Shown: positions 57,905 to 64,000 of the stretch, one piece after another | Layout of the letters: the number at the start of each line of letters is the position of its first letter | Numbering within the stretch: position 1 is the stretch's first letter | From: Escherichia virus TH42 | Reading direction: 5' to 3' (one strand) | Sequence record: MT446413.1 | Length of the DNA stretch: 64,000 nt | Notes under the pieces: model-generated | Told to the model about the DNA's origin: nothing | What the model saw: only the letters and a program-made list of their open reading frames with translations | Database searches by the model: none | Position numbers and translations under genes: made by a program

Positions 57905-57940
57905 AAAGAAAAGGCCACCCGAAATGGGTAGCCTTATATT
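57905..57940 (-). terminator. terminator-like hairpin
   Basis: AAGGCCACCC-GAAAT-GGGTAGCCTT (one mismatch) with A-tract on plus strand. Confidence 0.4.
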
Positions 57941-58433
57941 AACTTGAGCTTAAAGCATGTCGGATAGCTGTGTGACTTACGCCAAACATCTTACCTAGTG
58001 CTCTTGTTCCATGAGTGGTAGAGCCTTTAACATATAAACTCTTGATCTTCTCCACATCCAATGTGTTGATTTTAGTCATTCCATTAGCATCCCTCTCTTT
58101 ACCAACATTAAGACCTGTTGAAAAAGCATGTTGCATATTTTCATGACCAGTGACCCACTCTAGGTTCTCTAACCTATTATCACTTTTGTTACCATTGATG
58201 TGGTTAATTTGTGGTTTATTTTCAGGGTTAGGTATGAGCACAGAAGCTATAAGTCTGTGAGCTTTCCATCTCCTCCCTTCAAAGTAAACTCTGATATACC
58301 CTTTTTCATCAACAGCCCCTGCCACTTTTCCCGGATGTGATTTATTCCATTTCTTACCTTTAGAGCTAGATTCGGTAAAAATCAATAAACCAGTATCCAG
58401 GTCGTATGACAAGTAGTCGGAAATCGGAATCAT
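57939..58433 (-). CDS. HNH endonuclease (putative homing endonuclease)
   Basis: NHINGNKSDNRLENLEWVTGHENMQHA is a canonical HNH motif. Confidence 0.6.
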   Translation of the reverse strand: MIPISDYLSYDLDTGLLIFTESSSKGKKWNKSHPGKVAGAVDEKGYIRVYFEGRRWKAHRLIASVLIPNPENKPQINHINGNKSDNRLENLEWVTGHENMQHAFSTGLNVGKERDANGMTKINTLDVEKIKSLYVKGSTTHGTRALGKMFGVSHTAIRHALSSS

Positions 58434-59713: not shown

Positions 59714-60034
59714 TCAGATAGATTTGTCCTTATGTAAACGATATACTTCAGTAGCCATACAAGCAATACGCTCGTCATGAGGGAGATGCATACCAGTAGA
59801 GCCATTCCACCCATTGAACTCTGAATCAAAGAATCCAATAGGCTCAGGATACATCTCTTGCAAAGTGGTTAAGTCATCAGCCACTTGTTGCCATTTATTA
59901 TCAGACCAGATTGGGTCATCCAACCAATAATACAAATAGGAGTGGATAAGCATCTGCGTTCTGTGTCGTTTAATCACTTCAGCAGGACTAATCTCGTTTC
60001 CGTTACCAGTCCTAAATGTATTATCATTAATCAT
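59714..60034 (-). CDS. hypothetical protein (106 aa)
   Basis: Track ORF on block strand. Confidence 0.5.
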   Translation of the reverse strand: MINDNTFRTGNGNEISPAEVIKRHRTQMLIHSYLYYWLDDPIWSDNKWQQVADDLTTLQEMYPEPIGFFDSEFNGWNGSTGMHLPHDERIACMATEVYRLHKDKSI

Positions 60035-60934: not shown

Positions 60935-61129
60935 TTAGATAACCTTGTGCTTATAGATGCTAGGGTTGAAGTAGTGCAACCAGTTTATATACTGTTTCTG
61001 TTCGAGGTAGTGTCTGCAATCATGACAAAAAGCATGACCCAAACCCGTTTCCTCGTTCAGTTTGAAATTGATAAGAAGCTTATGCTTTTTGCATAAGCTA
61101 CATGCTTTAGTGATTTTCACGTAATGCAT
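60935..61129 (-). CDS. small zinc-ribbon-like protein (start moved to internal Met)
   Basis: Track ORF 60935..61243 overlaps thyX by 137 nt; MHYVKITKACSLCKK...CHDCRHY from Met at 61129 reduces overlap to 23 nt. Confidence 0.35.
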   Translation of the reverse strand: MHYVKITKACSLCKKHKLLINFKLNEETGLGHAFCHDCRHYLEQKQYINWLHYFNPSIYKHKVI

Positions 61130-61757
61130 CCCATGAGATTGGGAAAAGTTTACGAAGCTCTTCATCAATAGTTGATGCGAACAAACGCACCTCATACTGA
61201 GCATGGTCTGACAGACGTTGACGACACAACTCTGACCAACCAAATAAAGAACCTGTCCACACCCACTCAGTGATCATGCCCTGAGGCAATACGAACCGAG
61301 CTTGCTCTGGAGCGATAAACTTAATCAATTCATCATACGACTCAAGAGCTGTTTCATATGCTCGATTAATCAGAACTAGTGCAGAGTTTTGTGCTCCTGT
61401 GGTGAGGAGATTCCCCGCACCTGCATGGAGGTCCGAAGGTCTTTCAAAAATCTCTTTAGGGATGAAGAGTTCAACTGCTCCATCTTTATACCGCCGGGAC
61501 ATTTCGTTCCACGAGAATCCAACTTGATGCTTGCCCAACTGTCTCGCAATTGCGATTGGCGCTTTGCATCGGAAGCTAATTGTTGGATGACGGAATGGTG
61601 TGACATGCTTTTCTCTGGCAAGGAACTTGATAAGGCGTTCATCTCGTTCATTTAACTCTCCTTCACGAGTGACCCCAAAGGAAACTCGAGCTGCATTAAC
61701 AACAGATTTATCAGAACCCATTGCTTCGATTAGTGTTGCTTGTAATTGTTCATTCAT
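61107..61757 (-). CDS. thyX: FAD-dependent thymidylate synthase ThyX
   Basis: VVNAARVSF, HVTPFRH and RQLGKHQVGFSWNEMSRRY match the ThyX signature region, with KHQ where RHR is usual (recalled consensus). Confidence 0.65.
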   Translation of the reverse strand: MNEQLQATLIEAMGSDKSVVNAARVSFGVTREGELNERDERLIKFLAREKHVTPFRHPTISFRCKAPIAIARQLGKHQVGFSWNEMSRRYKDGAVELFIPKEIFERPSDLHAGAGNLLTTGAQNSALVLINRAYETALESYDELIKFIAPEQARFVLPQGMITEWVWTGSLFGWSELCRQRLSDHAQYEVRLFASTIDEELRKLFPISWDALRENH

Positions 61758-61771
61758 CCTTGAACTCTTCC

Positions 61772-61984
61772 TTAATAGTAAACTTTTGGTACTACCACAA
61801 AGAAACCAGTGGCTGTCATATATGCACGGTGGATTGAAATCTTCGAATCACGACCTATCTTCTTGAGAGCACGTTTGGTGCATCGTGCAGTTTTACGAGT
61901 AGCGCAAGTAAGAACCCTTGGGTACTCCATCTCTGGATATTTGGAAACAACAGCCCAGAAATACACATCTTTTCCTTGAGTCAT
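61772..61984 (-). CDS. hypothetical protein, tandem paralog (70 aa)
   Basis: FWAVV...RKTARCTKRALKKIG parallels 62000..62215. Confidence 0.45.
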   Translation of the reverse strand: MTQGKDVYFWAVVSKYPEMEYPRVLTCATRKTARCTKRALKKIGRDSKISIHRAYMTATGFFVVVPKVYY

Positions 61985-61999
61985 AACAGCACCCGTTCC

Positions 62000-62215
62000 T
62001 TAATAATGAATCTTTTTATAAATCATGTTGCTTCCACTTTCTGTTTCAATCCCTTTCTGAATTGTAATCTTAGAAGCGCCAGTGTTAGCAATTTTCAAAG
62101 CTCGCTTAAAGCGGCGAGCCTCTCTCCGTGTTGTGTATGAGGAGAAGCTAGGGATTGTGCTATCAAAATTAAACCACTTAACTACCCAAAAAGTAGTCCA
62201 AGGTTTCTTTTCCAT
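62000..62215 (-). CDS. hypothetical protein, tandem paralog (71 aa)
   Basis: FWVVK...RREARRFKRALKIAN parallels 61772..61984. Confidence 0.45.
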   Translation of the reverse strand: MEKKPWTTFWVVKWFNFDSTIPSFSSYTTRREARRFKRALKIANTGASKITIQKGIETESGSNMIYKKIHY

Positions 62216-62216
62216 A

Positions 62217-62492
62217 TTAAATACCTTTCAGAGCCGTGTCTAAAAATGCACGGAGATTAGATTCAGTTTGCATACCTGATAAACTATAATGAGCACCACT
62301 ATTCTTATCAGGGACGACAAAGGCTGGGATACTGCGAACACCATATTCAACGGCTCGCTCTCGACCATCACCTTCAGAGATATTTACTTCTTCAACTTCT
62401 ACACTGTAGTCAGCCACAACCTTCTTAAGCACAGGAGCCATAGCTGCACACGGAGCACATGAATTACTATAAAACTTAATTACTTTACTCAT
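62217..62492 (-). CDS. thioredoxin/glutaredoxin-like redoxin
   Basis: CAPC active-site dyad after first beta-strand (KVIKFYSNSCAPC); start set at ATG 62492 preceded by AAGGA RBS; track ORF extends further from a non-ATG start. Confidence 0.6.
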   Translation of the reverse strand: MSKVIKFYSNSCAPCAAMAPVLKKVVADYSVEVEEVNISEGDGRERAVEYGVRSIPAFVVPDKNSGAHYSLSGMQTESNLRAFLDTALKGI

Positions 62493-62493
62493 T

Positions 62494-62682
62494 CTATTCC
62501 TTGTTAATAAACAGGTTGATATGACGCTGGGTAGCAGGAACAACAATAAAAGATTTATACTGACCTTTTGCTAAGTCATGAGCAATCTTCTTTGTCTGAC
62601 CAAGACCCATCACACAGCCACTAACGATAATGGCATGTGCTTGTAATTCTTCAGGGAGGTTTAATTTCATTATGCAGTCCAC
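62494..62682 (-). CDS. hypothetical protein (62 aa)
   Basis: Track ORF abutting the redoxin gene. Confidence 0.4.
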   Translation of the reverse strand: MDCIMKLNLPEELQAHAIIVSGCVMGLGQTKKIAHDLAKGQYKSFIVVPATQRHINLFINKE

Positions 62683-62891
62683 AGGTGGAGAAGGAAAGGA
62701 ATAACAACAGAGAAAACTACCAGAGCAATGCTACCATGTTTAATAGGTTTGGCATCATTTGGATTTTCTTTAAGCATTTGCTTTTGAGCCAGATAAACAA
62801 TACCACCAACAAGAATTGCCCACACAGACCATACGATTGCTGAAAACATATTCACATCCTTATAAAGAAGTTCGCCCCACCTCTTAAACAA
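62670..62891 (-). CDS. small membrane protein, two TM segments (73 aa)
   Basis: Hydrophobic segments FSAIVWSVWAILVGGIVYL and IALVVFSVVIPFLLHLW. Confidence 0.45.
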   Translation of the reverse strand: MFKRWGELLYKDVNMFSAIVWSVWAILVGGIVYLAQKQMLKENPNDAKPIKHGSIALVVFSVVIPFLLHLWTA

Positions 62892-62912
62892 AGAGACAGG
62901 GCGGAGGTTTGA

Positions 62913-63479
62913 TTAGTAAGACACATCGCCACTAGAGTGGGACATGTTGCTCTTGACGAAGTAACAGAACTTGCCAAGACCTTCATTAATTTCTTGAAGC
63001 ATACTCTGGTCTACTGGATAAGTGCACAAGTCTGAATCAAACTCGTCCATCTTTTCAATGATACACATCAGAGTCATGCACATGTCGGAAAGCATACCGT
63101 CCATGTCGAGATCAGCACTACCTTCTCTGAACCAAGCACAACTAAGATAGCTACTAGCTGTTGCATCCACTTTGATACAGTGATAACGCATTCGCTCAGC
63201 TACTCGGTCTCCTGTTTCACGAGCATAGTCTTCTAATTCATCGAACATACCATGAACACCTTGGAAACCAGCTCCAGAGACGTTCCAGTGGTAATTCTTT
63301 GCTTTGATGTGTAGAAGCTCAAGGTTAGCCTGCACACCGCATAGGATGTGCTCTAGACTGTTACCGCTGATCAGTTTATTCATTCCCTCAAGACGAGAGA
63401 TAGAGGAGTCAGTTGTAGAGAATGGGTTACTAGAACCCACTCGTGTTAGTTCAGGTAAGTCGAAGACATTATTATGCAT
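62913..63479 (-). CDS. Dps/ferritin-like protein (putative)
   Basis: KNYHWNVSGAGFQGVHGMFDELEDYA resembles the Dps N-terminal helix signature (HWNV.G..F..LH...E..Y); recalled consensus. Confidence 0.45.
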   Translation of the reverse strand: MHNNVFDLPELTRVGSSNPFSTTDSSISRLEGMNKLISGNSLEHILCGVQANLELLHIKAKNYHWNVSGAGFQGVHGMFDELEDYARETGDRVAERMRYHCIKVDATASSYLSCAWFREGSADLDMDGMLSDMCMTLMCIIEKMDEFDSDLCTYPVDQSMLQEINEGLGKFCYFVKSNMSHSSGDVSY

Positions 63480-63819
63480 TAGGAGTCTCTCCTTCTAAAT
63501 TGGTTGAATTGGCTACGTTACGAGCAATGTTGTCCATGACCTGCTGGGTAATAACAATGCAATTCTGTGGGTCTACAGACTTAGAACGCCCCATTTCAGG
63601 GTCATAGACTTTGACTCGCTTGGCTGTTGAGCCAGTAACTTGCAACACTTTGAGAAGATAACCTTGATTTCCAATAGACCATGCAACAACATCACGATTC
63701 TTGATATAACGACCAAGCATATCACGATGATAGAACTGCTGCATAACTTTAGCTTTGCTAATCTCTTCAGATGGCGGGGCCACTTTACTCAAATCTAACA
63801 TAACTCTCTCCTGTTTCAT
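63472..63819 (-). CDS. hypothetical protein (115 aa)
   Basis: Track ORF; 8-nt overlap with downstream gene. Confidence 0.5.
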   Translation of the reverse strand: MKQERVMLDLSKVAPPSEEISKAKVMQQFYHRDMLGRYIKNRDVVAWSIGNQGYLLKVLQVTGSTAKRVKVYDPEMGRSKSVDPQNCIVITQQVMDNIARNVANSTNLEGETPNA

Positions 63820-63871
63820 ACAATATTCTTATACTGTATATACATTTGAGAGTTATCATATCTACTACCAA

Positions 63872-64000
63872 CTAGTAATAAACCTTGCTGGATATGAATC
63901 CAGCACTGTTCTGGATATTTTCAATCCAACGATGAATCTCCACCTTTTCAGCGATTCCTAAAGCTTTTGTAGCTTTTATAGTTTTCTTAGCAAGACGAGC
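63872..64000 (-). CDS. hypothetical protein, 5' end outside window
   Basis: Minus-strand frame open from window edge (ARLAKKTIKATKALGIAEKVEIHRWIENIQNSAGFISSKVYY) to stop at 63872-63874. Confidence 0.3.
   Translation of the reverse strand, partial: ARLAKKTIKATKALGIAEKVEIHRWIENIQNSAGFISSKVYY

Follow-up and report, generated by a model that had tools for sequence, protein, structure and literature searches.

Dps-family genes have been reported from several groups of phages, and the gene described here is already known, since gp67 of phiEco32 has been annotated as a Dps-family protein since 2008 (record name of phi32_67: "DNA-binding protein, member of the Dps family"). A Dps homolog was also previously described in SU10 (CDS67) and in the Proteus phage Privateer, where its function was termed putative by the authors. 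SU10 CDS67 was identified in mass spectrometry through 6 peptides and 35.8% coverage, thus the ortholog is expressed. For the Dps proteins of gut, Lactobacillus and other phages, protection of the infection from oxidative stress was proposed. No experimental characterisation of any phage Dps was found in the literature searched. We analysed a stretch of 64,000 nucleotides (hereafter the window) of Escherichia virus TH42 (MT446413.1), a Kuravirus (phiEco32-like) podophage of E. coli, whose features are collected in Table 1. A first-pass annotation of the same stretch had called a phage-encoded Dps uncommon; uncommon it is, yet it is well documented and was already annotated in phiEco32.

Table 1. 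Features of the Dps locus and its surroundings (positions in the window).
Feature	Position	Strand	Basis or remark
ThyX flavin-dependent thymidylate synthase homolog, phi32_64 ortholog	61107..61757	-	Pfam Thy1 1.1e-42; PDB ThyX 7e-29
Thioredoxin-like gene, 91 aa, CAPC motif, phi32_65 ortholog	62217..62492	-	Pfam Thioredoxin 1.6e-12
13-bp G+C-rich hairpin followed by T-rich tract	62873..62903	-	10 nt past the Dps stop
Dps-family mini-ferritin gene, 188 aa	62913..63479	-	ORF, Pfam, PHROG, PDB, AF2 and Foldseek, phiEco32 annotation
Codons for residues 64-95, end of helix A through helix B	63195..63290	-	Ferroxidase ligands and W65
N-terminal extension, residues 1-45	63345..63479	-	Conserved MHNNxFDLP, variable disordered linker, helix 26-38
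Gene X, 109 aa, phi32_68 / SU10 CDS68 ortholog	63472..63801	-	PHROG 10984 at 1e-62
Shine-Dalgarno AAGGAG	63489..63494	-	9 nt 5' of the Dps ATG, within the 3' end of the upstream gene
Phage-sigma promoter element AAATGTATA	63839..63847	-	Matches gp36 element tAATGTAtA; 37 nt 5' of the X start codon
Terminator-like hairpin 5' of the promoter, end of the preceding gene	63886..63905	-	Consensus scan only

The Dps-family protein and its ferroxidase site

The open reading frame starts with ATG on the minus strand, and the earlier proposal that its 188-aa product is Dps/ferritin-like was borne out by Pfam, PHROG, PDB, AF2 and Foldseek. In the profile HMM search that the first-pass annotation had called for, the protein scored above the gathering score of Pfam PF00210 (Ferritin-like domain; 31.4 bits vs 24.5), with only residues 56-99 aligned, and PHROG 3636 was matched at 5e-53. 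A phmmer search of the PDB returned about 35 distinct Dps sequences at E <=1e-3, every match at that level being a Dps, and the best of them (E 1.1e-9) aligned with residues 46-177. The AF2 monomer model has a mean pLDDT of 83, with values above 90 across most of residues 41-180 (91-98 when averaged over blocks of 10 residues), and predicts helices A, B, BC, C and D at residues 42-66, 72-99, 108-113, 126-146 and 155-177, i.e., a four-helix bundle whose long B-C loop holds the short BC helix and which lacks a fifth E helix. When this model was compared with the PDB by Foldseek, the best 50 matches were all Dps (target TM 0.75-0.92), the closest ones, e.g., Dlp-2 and MsDps2, superimposing with an rmsd of 1.2-2.4 A. 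The first-pass annotation was to be abandoned if no ferritin-like fold was predicted; what the model gives is the Dps bundle. All NCBIfam Dps equivalog models were matched far below their cut-offs, which places the protein in a divergent subfamily; the equivalog of E. coli-type DNA-binding Dps (NF006975) gave 34.8 bits vs a cut-off of 114, and the protein falls outside that group. The sequence matches, which go far beyond chance, and the predicted structure identify the product as a genuine Dps-family mini-ferritin.

Each dimer interface of a Dps shell harbours a di-iron ferroxidase centre made up of two histidines and an aspartate, together with an aspartate and a glutamate. The corresponding ligands in the window protein are H64, H76 and D80 from one subunit and D91 and E95 from its partner, with W65 as the neighbouring tryptophan; the HWNV motif pointed out in the first-pass annotation occupies residues 64-67. 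These residues align with H51/W52/H63/D67/D78/E82 of E. coli Dps (the sequence used was verified against 1f30). All six, i.e., the five ligands and W65, are invariant in 27/27 family members, down to 40% identity, and the same six are kept in the 32-42% identical homologs of Proteus, Salmonella, Aeromonas and Cronobacter phages. In the family alignment conservation is highest in helices A, B and D, and the motif at the end of helix D (K170, F174, S177) is conserved and aligns with DKFLWFIES of E. coli Dps. A hollow dodecamer of the Dps kind, with 23 symmetry, is indirectly supported by this motif and by a ligand set that is sensible only at a dimer interface. Membership in the DPSL/bacterioferritin type, with an intrasubunit di-iron site formed by conserved Glu and ExxH motifs of helices B and D, was considered and rejected: the family alignment has no conserved ExxH in helices B and D, the sole E..H of the window protein (E54-H57) lies in helix A and is unconserved, position 57 being mostly Tyr in relatives, and the pattern of invariant residues is that of canonical Dps.

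The subunit is strongly acidic (pI 4.71, charge -13.9), which amounts to about -170 per dodecamer. Its first 45 residues contain 1 Lys, 2 Arg, 2 Asp and 3 Glu, giving a net charge of -2 and no Lys-rich tail. This extension is modelled with pLDDT 40-59, and its low-confidence helix 26-38 carries SxxRL(D/E)xM. The HNNxFDLP peptide is kept across Kuravirus-type members, while the linker that follows differs in both sequence and length. A shared cargo or targeting peptide found no support, as a search for [FYIVL]DLP in all six frames of the window placed the motif near a start codon only at the Dps N-terminus and no other ORF of the window carries it. QL[SD]LF is the clamp-binding consensus and DDDIPF that of the SSB tail; by eye HNNxFDLP fits neither, and such readings were set aside. 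The window protein contains 7 Cys and 12 Met, compared with 0 and 4 in E. coli Dps. Conservation of the individual Cys positions reaches no more than 26-70% of family members, and the number of Cys in distant homologs is 1-6; the idea that the nearby thioredoxin services a thiol or Cu(I) site was dropped because of this poor conservation.

Gene X, transcription and genomic context

The Dps gene is directly preceded by gene X, whose stop overlaps the Dps start codon (AATGCATAA). The length given for gene X is that of the start annotated in relatives, and an ORF start is also possible at 63819. Homologs of gene X occur in 130 phage records and lie directly 5' of Dps in four other phage lineages (pairwise blastp E 1e-14 to 1e-17). 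No Pfam, NCBIfam or PADLOC match was obtained for the protein. Its AF2 model has a pLDDT of 65, and the best PDB matches in Foldseek are Tudor, PWWP and SH3-like barrels with E >=4e-3 and TM of about 0.5, too weak for assignment to a family.

In phiEco32, experimental mapping has placed a gp36-dependent promoter upstream of gene 68 (PMC8948821). Gene 68 (phi32_68) is the ortholog of gene X, and the element AAATGTATA is invariant in phiEco32, Bas88, 4E8 and the window. The single tAATGTAtA-type element a short way upstream of the first gene, by which gp36-dependent middle transcription units are recognised, is thus present. The 8-mer AATGTATA occurs 5 times in the window vs 2.8 expected, which is not significant, and this count was rejected as statistical evidence for promoters; the promoter upstream of X is called on the basis of the published mapping and the sequence invariance, not of motif counts. 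The hairpin downstream of Dps has an RNA folding energy of -18.6 kcal/mol (z = -3.95), with 0/200 shuffles as stable, and is conserved in phiEco32, Bas88 and 4E8, while a metagenomic relative has a hairpin of different sequence with a T tract at the same place after Dps. It is probably an intrinsic terminator or attenuator that closes the X-Dps unit. As judged from these sequence features, X and Dps constitute a conserved bicistronic unit, which is predicted to start behind the gp36-type promoter element and to end at the hairpin.

The first-pass annotation had placed Dps in a cluster with the thioredoxin-like gene and ThyX. The coordinates and the common strand agree with this, but the surroundings are a general phage module in which small ORFs intervene, two of them between Dps and the thioredoxin gene in the window and three in Bas88. 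Dps is flanked by dCTP deaminase and primase-helicase genes on one side and by thioredoxin, ThyX and DNA polymerase genes on the other. Every NCBIfam thioredoxin match of the thioredoxin-like gene is below the equivalog cut-off, and the ThyX homolog carries the signature motif KHQ, not RHR. In distant relatives Dps adjoins ThyX, thioredoxin or the anaerobic ribonucleotide reductase genes nrdD/nrdG. The neighbourhood is the phage's general module for replication and nucleotide metabolism and no operon dedicated to redox functions.

Possible roles of the phage mini-ferritin

The most likely role of the protein is detoxification of Fe(II) and H2O2 during phage DNA replication, and the whole explanation, a Dps mini-ferritin made in mid-infection whose dodecamer removes both compounds, is held with moderate confidence. 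A Kuravirus phage would make Dps in the middle phase of infection, co-transcribed with gene X. Twelve subunits would assemble into a hollow shell; Fe(II) would be bound by it, oxidised, with H2O2 as the preferred oxidant, and kept inside as Fe(III), and both Fenton reagents would be removed while the phage DNA replicates. Host Dps is scarce and is degraded by ClpXP in growing cells. With host sigma-70 transcription shut off by gp79, the OxyR-dependent host dps could not be induced, which may be the reason why the phage supplies its own copy. Given the charge of the subunit and its lack of a Lys-rich tail, protection would probably be chemical, through removal of iron and peroxide, rather than by coating of DNA. 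Localisation or regulation of the shell may be the task of the conserved N-terminal peptide and of gene X. The shut-off argument has a weak side: phage 7-11 has no gp79 and does not shut off its host, and SE131, which represents the 7-11 group, still carries Dps, a distribution that would count against it. Moreover, plain detoxification leaves the 45-residue N-terminal extension and the tightly linked gene X unexplained.

Among the functions suggested in the first-pass annotation (iron handling, oxidative-stress handling, DNA protection), direct protection through DNA binding has the weakest support, given the strong acidity of the protein and its lack of a basic tail. That the dodecamer coats or condenses phage or host DNA, as Dps of stationary-phase E. 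coli does, seems rather improbable to us. DNA binding by E. coli Dps depends on its Lys-rich N-terminal tail, and the short basic N-termini of homologs from Proteus, Salmonella, Cronobacter and Aeromonas phages (MARDIIRSRPSLRR, MLGARPKRP, MIPTKPKSSSK, MLAPKDKNSR) do resemble its K5/K8/K10 segment; the window protein has the acidic subunit and net negative extension described above, and one of its closest structural matches is Dlp-2 of Bacillus anthracis, which is not known to bind DNA. "DNA binding protein" is the name given in PHROG 3636 and in many records, but this label is inherited from the family name. The Privateer homolog was detected in CsCl-purified virions, which would suit a DNA-coating protein. 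A shell that serves as an iron store or donor, buffering iron for enzymes of dNTP supply (host NrdB, or phage NrdG/NrdD in relatives), would need an intact ferroxidase site equally, and the conserved ligands fit it just as well; anaerobic ribonucleotide reductase genes are also neighbours of Dps, adjacent or close by, in Cronobacter A24, Aeromonas LAh_9, Proteus P59 and the metagenomic contig L006. Nevertheless, we regard this role as unlikely. Dps cores are small and Dps are generally seen as detoxifiers, not stores, while ThyX, the neighbour in the window, is flavin-dependent and not iron-dependent. No ribonucleotide reductase is annotated in the Bas88 region flanking Dps, and according to the Privateer paper the ribonucleotide reductases of that phage have no homologs in Kuravirus genomes.

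Another reading places Dps shells or subunits in or on the prolate capsid, where they would act on the packaged or injected genome, with HNNxFDLP and/or X as the targeting element. In its favour is the detection by mass spectrometry of Privateer Dps in CsCl-purified virions, from which only about 10 virion proteins were verified; in addition, a fold search of BFVD pointed to Dps-fold domains within what appear to be larger phage proteins, named "prohead protease" in UniProt (A0A6J7XDU5, A0A6J7WPK9, A0A6J7WIS1), and the HNNxFDLP peptide with its variable linker resembles a short docking motif. However, a dense iron-loaded dodecamer could band together with phage particles in CsCl, the long N-terminal extension is missing from the Privateer homolog, and the Dps gene is a middle-class gene of the replication module, away from the late structural cluster. 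The N-terminal motif is, as noted, confined to Dps among the ORFs of the window. The SU10 mass spectrometry was not accepted as a sign that the protein is virion-associated, since it had been done on a PEG precipitate and not on gradient-purified particles, and this sample also contained DNA polymerase, sigma factor and other non-structural proteins; Dps, gp67 and ferritin go unmentioned in the main text of the SU10 cryo-EM paper. Taken together, a virion cargo appears very unlikely. It is a speculative thought, to which we give a low chance, that gp68 (X, a possible small beta-barrel) and gp67 act as a conserved two-protein module and the shell is no free-floating detoxifier, its twelve flexible N-terminal peptides and/or X docking the acidic nanocage on the phage replisome and DNA, or on the assembling prolate procapsid. 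If that were true, C3-type phages would carry or position a mini-ferritin, recalling the ferritin-like cargo of HK97-fold encapsulins. An integrase, finally, is the product name in more than 12 GenBank/RefSeq records of related phages (e.g., IME267, ES17, MLP3, vB_EcoP-101114UKE3 and E20-1), and the name is all that speaks for it. No integrase or recombinase domain was detected, Ferritin being the sole Pfam hit with E <=1, and the predicted fold is the Dps helix bundle, not that of an integrase. A tyrosine or serine integrase is thus refuted by the Pfam search, the AF2 model and Foldseek, and the name is an annotation error copied between records.

The find is correct but ordinary. It has little weight as a discovery, because the Dps-family annotation dates from the publication of the phiEco32 genome. 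What is added here is the acidity set against the labels, the X-Dps unit with its promoter and hairpin, the HNNxFDLP peptide, and the lack of a close cellular relative in the scan described below. The label "DNA-binding protein", and especially "integrase", are poorly founded for an acidic subunit without a Lys-rich tail: the former is inherited and fits a very acidic protein poorly, and the latter, wrong as it is, could falsely suggest a temperate lifestyle in records of therapy-candidate phages. The strict conservation of the ferroxidase site at 32-42% identity, the partner gene and the phage-sigma promoter imply a function selected in lytic infection. Phages of this group can now be plated on E. 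coli K-12 whose O-antigen has been restored, among them Bas88 (O16 antigen), which has an identical Dps; the need of a lytic phage for iron and peroxide control of its own can thus be studied in a tractable system.

Comparison with known systems

How far does this protein depart from the Dps proteins described so far? In a scan of one genome per species (185,579 species) no close cellular relative was found; the best match, with 43% identity, lies on a scaffold of 568 bp, and the remaining matches span helices A-B only. E. coli Dps is 21% identical to the window protein (phmmer E 0.04), and the gene is thus no recent acquisition from the host. E. coli Dps (1DPS/1F30), M. smegmatis Dps2 (2Z90) and B. 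anthracis Dlp-2 (1JIG) share the bundle with the BC helix, and canonical bacterial Dps have the same inter-subunit ferroxidase ligands and Trp; compared with them the window protein is far more acidic, has no Lys-rich tail and bears a 45-residue N-terminal extension with motifs of its own. Proteins of the DPSL/PA4880 type share the Dps-like subunit fold, and presumably the 12-mer too, but differ by their bacterioferritin-type intrasubunit di-iron sites. The phage Dps-fold proteins of Gratiaviridae, LP65 (Orf120), Semele and phage G (gp346) belong to other lineages and other hosts, and identity of the window protein to the gut, Lactobacillus and other phage Dps is 14-22% in fold alignments.

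Much closer are the C3-morphotype podophages (Privateer/P59, SE131/7-11, A24 and LAh_9), whose Dps are 32-42% identical, with the same ligands and a replication-module context, mostly beside anaerobic ribonucleotide reductase genes. Gene X is present in these relatives too, directly 5' of Dps except in the 7-11/SE131 group, yet their Dps homologs measure only 146-156 aa, start with a short basic N-terminus and do not have the HNNxFDLP extension. Within Kuravirus, phiEco32 gp67, SU10 CDS67 and Bas88_0058 are orthologs with no material difference. The Dps of the SU10/NJ01-type group, to which phiEco32 belongs, is about 81-82% identical to that of the window, that of Bas88 and TH34 is 100% identical, and in phiEco32 the gene occupies the same position, between phi32_68 and phi32_66 and behind the same promoter element.

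Identity, conservation and spread of the Dps-type protein

It had been proposed in the first-pass annotation that a Dps/ferritin-like protein with an HWNV-type motif is encoded beside a thioredoxin-like protein and ThyX, and each part of this proposal holds. The product carries K-N-Y-H64-W-N-V-S-G, and both neighbours are present (see the table). The HMM search suggested there gave Pfam PF00210 above its cut-off (31.4 vs. 24.5 bits), the aligned part being residues 56–99 only, and PHROG 3636 was matched at 5e-53. With phmmer against PDB (E ≤1e-3) exclusively Dps proteins were retrieved, the best being M. smegmatis Dps2 (1e-9, residues 46–177 aligned), followed by B. anthracis Dlp-2, B. subtilis MrgA and others. 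The structure prediction, also suggested at that stage, agrees: the AlphaFold2 model, built with 27 homologs (mean pLDDT 83; 10-residue-block means 91–98 over residues 41–180), has predicted helices at 42–66, 72–99, 108–113, 126–146 and 155–177, which is the A-B-BC-C-D topology of Dps. The best 50 Foldseek matches in PDB are all Dps (target TM-scores 0.75–0.92), with rmsd of 1.2–2.4 Å for the nearest and 1.2 Å over 138 columns for Dlp-2 (1JIG).

In the family alignment, whose E. coli Dps reference was checked to be identical to 1F30, residues H64, W65, H76, D80, D91 and E95 align with H51, W52, H63, D67, D78 and E82 of E. coli Dps, i.e., the inter-subunit ferroxidase ligands with their neighbouring Trp. 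None of the six varies across 27/27 family members, at identities as low as 40%, and all are kept in 32–42% identical homologs from Proteus P59, Salmonella SE131, Aeromonas LAh_9 and Cronobacter A24. Mean identity is highest in helices A, B and D (0.79–0.82) and is 0.42 in the N-terminal 24 residues. Since matches to NCBIfam Dps equivalog models all lie far below their cut-offs, the phage protein is judged, on sequence, to be a divergent Dps subfamily orthologous to no named bacterial Dps. Recent capture from the host was ruled out, because E. coli Dps is only a weak phmmer match (E 0.04), with 21% identity in the alignment.

Megablast of 61000–64000 retrieved 98 phage records (ECBP2, TH43, Bas87/Bas88, IME267 and SU10 among them), nearly all Escherichia/Shigella phages of the Kuravirus/Gordonclarkvirinae group, which are phiEco32-like podophages with prolate C3 heads. 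StefiGeyer_Bas88 and TH34 encode exactly this Dps protein (100% identity), and the proteins of the SU10, NJ01, 172-1 group share 81–82% identity with it. The phiEco32 ortholog, phi32_67, is annotated as "DNA-binding protein; member of the Dps family". SU10 CDS67 ("contains a DPS domain") was listed among the few middle genes common to all five then-known C3 phages, and its product was seen by mass spectrometry (PMC4281155), while the report of a Dps-family protein in purified Privateer virions states that homologs exist in Kuravirus phages (PMC7881722). The identification is thus correct and already known from literature and databases.

When 1.84 billion cluster representatives were searched exhaustively with HMMER, 531 matched at E ≤1e-3, only 14 at 1e-10 and only two at 1e-30. 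A pattern scan covering 185,579 prokaryotic species, each by one genome, revealed no close cellular relative; the best match (43% identity) lies on a 568-bp scaffold, and the remaining ones cover the helix A-B region only (29–53%). In the phage collection 135 records contain a relative, namely Escherichia/Shigella (95), Aeromonas (11), Proteus (8), Salmonella (7) and Cronobacter (6) phages, with a few Streptomyces and Synechococcus phages. When viral models were searched by fold, Dps folds turned up in two Lactobacillus phages (LP65 and Semele), in Bacillus phage G, among crAss-like phages and in numerous uncultured phages. Benler et al. found Dps in Gratiaviridae as well as in 36 further gut phage genomes (PMC8008677). 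Phage-encoded Dps is therefore uncommon, as first proposed, though well documented. Separately, three larger uncultured-Caudovirales proteins with the UniProt name "prohead protease" (BFVD A0A6J7XDU5, A0A6J7WPK9, A0A6J7WIS1) contain putative Dps-fold domains; if this arrangement proves real, a mini-ferritin domain would be fused to a capsid-maturation protein in some phages.

The two-gene unit and neighbouring genes

Features of the window and compared loci of other sequences
Feature	Position	Strand	Details
Dps-family ORF	62913–63479	−	188 aa; ATG start
Gene X	63472–63801	−	PHROG 10984; = phi32_68, SU10 CDS68
Promoter element AAATGTATA	63847–63839	−	37 nt 5′ of X start codon
Membrane-type protein	62670–62849	−	~59 aa, hydrophobic; PHROG 9296 (function unknown)
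Dps–thioredoxin gap	62493–62912		~420 nt; two small ORFs
Same gap, Bas88	L001 6568–7195		~630 nt; three annotated small ORFs
Thioredoxin-like protein	62217–62492	−	91 aa; CAPC motif; Pfam Thioredoxin 1.6e-12
Small ORF	62000–62215	−	71 aa
Small ORF	61772–61984	−	70 aa
ThyX homolog	61107–61757	−	Pfam Thy1 1.1e-42
Nlig-Ia protein	59714–60034	−	106 aa; Pfam Nlig-Ia 1.2e-33
HNH_3 homing-type endonuclease	57939–58433	−	164 aa; Pfam 4e-10
Compared ThyX	L010 3926–4582
Compared ThyX	L003 3294–3959
Compared ThyX	L004 7155–7901
Compared ThyX	L006 5886–6551

The 3′ end of the upstream partner gene X falls within the Dps start codon region (AATGCATAA), with the ribosome-binding site AAGGAG 9 nt 5′ of the Dps ATG. 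Proteus P59, Aeromonas LAh_9 and Cronobacter A24 each have an X homolog that directly precedes the Dps gene and overlaps it (pairwise blastp E 1e-14 to 1e-17), and so does L006, a metagenomic phage contig of 100 kb in which X is the more conserved of the two (70% identity vs. only 50% for Dps). In Salmonella SE131 and 7-11 X adjoins the thioredoxin gene and ThyX is directly 5′ of Dps. The 130 phage records that contain X have the host distribution of Dps, except that Streptomyces and Synechococcus phages are missing. A functional link is no more than suggested by the preserved overlap, and co-inheritance inside a single phage lineage gives it weak support. No match to X was found in Pfam, NCBIfam or PADLOC; its model (pLDDT 65; helix, five-stranded small barrel, helix) gave marginal Tudor/SH3-like fold matches only and suggests a small barrel of this type with flanking helices.

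The element 5′ of X fits the single-element promoter tAATGTAtA of gp36, the phiEco32 sigma factor, and this region is invariant in the window, phiEco32, Bas88 and 4E8. According to PMC8948821, six promoters of this type have been mapped by experiment, including one 5′ of gene 68 of phiEco32; phi32_68 is X. A 13-bp hairpin with a T-rich tract behind it (−18.6 kcal/mol, z = −3.95) lies ten nt past the Dps stop and is kept in phiEco32; the metagenomic relative has a hairpin of different sequence at the equivalent position. The SU10 classification places these genes in the middle gene cluster (PMC4281155). With the gp36 element 5′ and the hairpin 3′, X-Dps looks like a discrete middle-cluster unit under the phage sigma factor, with possible read-through into the thioredoxin and ThyX genes. 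The first gene past the hairpin encodes the membrane-type protein, and the Dps–thioredoxin gap differs between the window and the otherwise near-identical Bas88 by an indel of one small gene.

Residues 1–25 of Dps are predicted disordered and 26–38 form a low-confidence helix. The N-terminal (M)HNNxFDLP is kept in relatives to about 50% identity, then comes a linker of differing sequence and length and the motif SxxRL(D/E)xM, a pattern resembling a short tethered docking peptide. The N-terminal motif was found in no other ORF of the window.

Further observations concern neighbouring genes. The ThyX signature RHRxxS (R78-H79-R80 in T. maritima) is replaced by K-H-Q-(V/A)-G-F-S with a one-residue insertion (window residues ~74–92) in every C3-type phage ThyX examined (Kuravirus, SE131, LAh_9, metagenomic contig), so that two dUMP-phosphate-binding arginines are substituted across the lineage. 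As the BASEL paper speculates on DNA modification in these phages, substrate or product of the phage ThyX may be non-standard. The 70- and 71-aa ORFs between ThyX and thioredoxin genes, both without a Pfam match, are mutually paralogous (33% identity, E 2e-7, pairwise comparison) and look like a tandem duplication of a small basic protein. The HNH_3 ORF, between the DNA polymerase region and a PhoH-like gene, is probably a mobile insertion varying between isolates, since Bas88 has no annotated gene there. The Nlig-Ia protein has nothing but the NAD+-binding Ia domain of NAD-dependent DNA ligase; in relatives it is annotated "DNA ligase", but its length is far below that of a ligase, and it may therefore modulate host LigA.

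Possible role during infection and inherited labels

On balance, Dps probably serves detoxification without direct DNA coating. A canonical Dps shell would oxidise Fe(II), preferably with H2O2, the oxidant preferred by E. coli Dps, and sequester Fe(III), which would curb Fenton damage during phage DNA replication. The constant position among dCTP deaminase, thioredoxin, ThyX and DNA polymerase genes, and in relatives oxygen-sensitive anaerobic RNR genes, fits a role protecting DNA synthesis. ThyX enzymes leak H2O2 in air, and such leakage could plausibly be a further step. In phiEco32-type phages sigma-70 transcription is shut off via gp79 (PMC8948821), so the host would plausibly be unable to induce dps; however, phage 7-11 has neither gp79 nor host shut-off (PMC8948821), and its close relative SE131 retains Dps, which counts against this step.

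That Dps acts instead as an iron donor is unlikely, and its packaging in the virion is very improbable. Although a Dps-family protein was detected in CsCl-purified Privateer virions (PMC7881722), putative Dps folds lie within "prohead protease" proteins and the Dps N-terminal peptide appears tethered, an iron-loaded shell is dense and could band together with phage in CsCl, the SU10 mass-spectrometry sample had been PEG-precipitated only, the SU10 cryo-EM paper leaves Dps unmentioned, and the gene is of the middle class, outside the late structural cluster. Residual interest attaches to the reason for ferroxidase conservation in a lytic phage, to the functions of gp68 (X) and the N-terminal peptide, and to virion association.

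The Dps ortholog is named "integrase" in more than 12 GenBank/RefSeq records (IME267, ES17, MLP3, vB_EcoP-101114UKE3, E20-1, PAS59, XT73 and others) of strictly lytic phages that are therapy candidates. The name is without any support, Pfam search giving Ferritin and Foldseek Dps, and is an annotation error propagated from record to record. There is value in correcting both this label and "DNA-binding", which fits the window protein poorly. Because the shorter homologs from Privateervirus, Moazamivirus, Crifsvirus and Lahexavirus have basic N-tails (MARDIIRSRPSLRR, MLGARPKRP, MIPTKPKSSSK, MLAPKDKNSR), DNA binding would be plausible for these and unlikely for the Kuravirus form; as the role of Dps in infection it is quite doubtful. 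In E. coli Dps the Lys-rich N-tail is required for DNA binding, whereas residues 1–45 of the window protein contain one Lys and two Arg vs. five acidic residues, and its subunit (pI 4.71, net charge about −14) is more acidic than that of E. coli Dps (pI 5.72, about −4).
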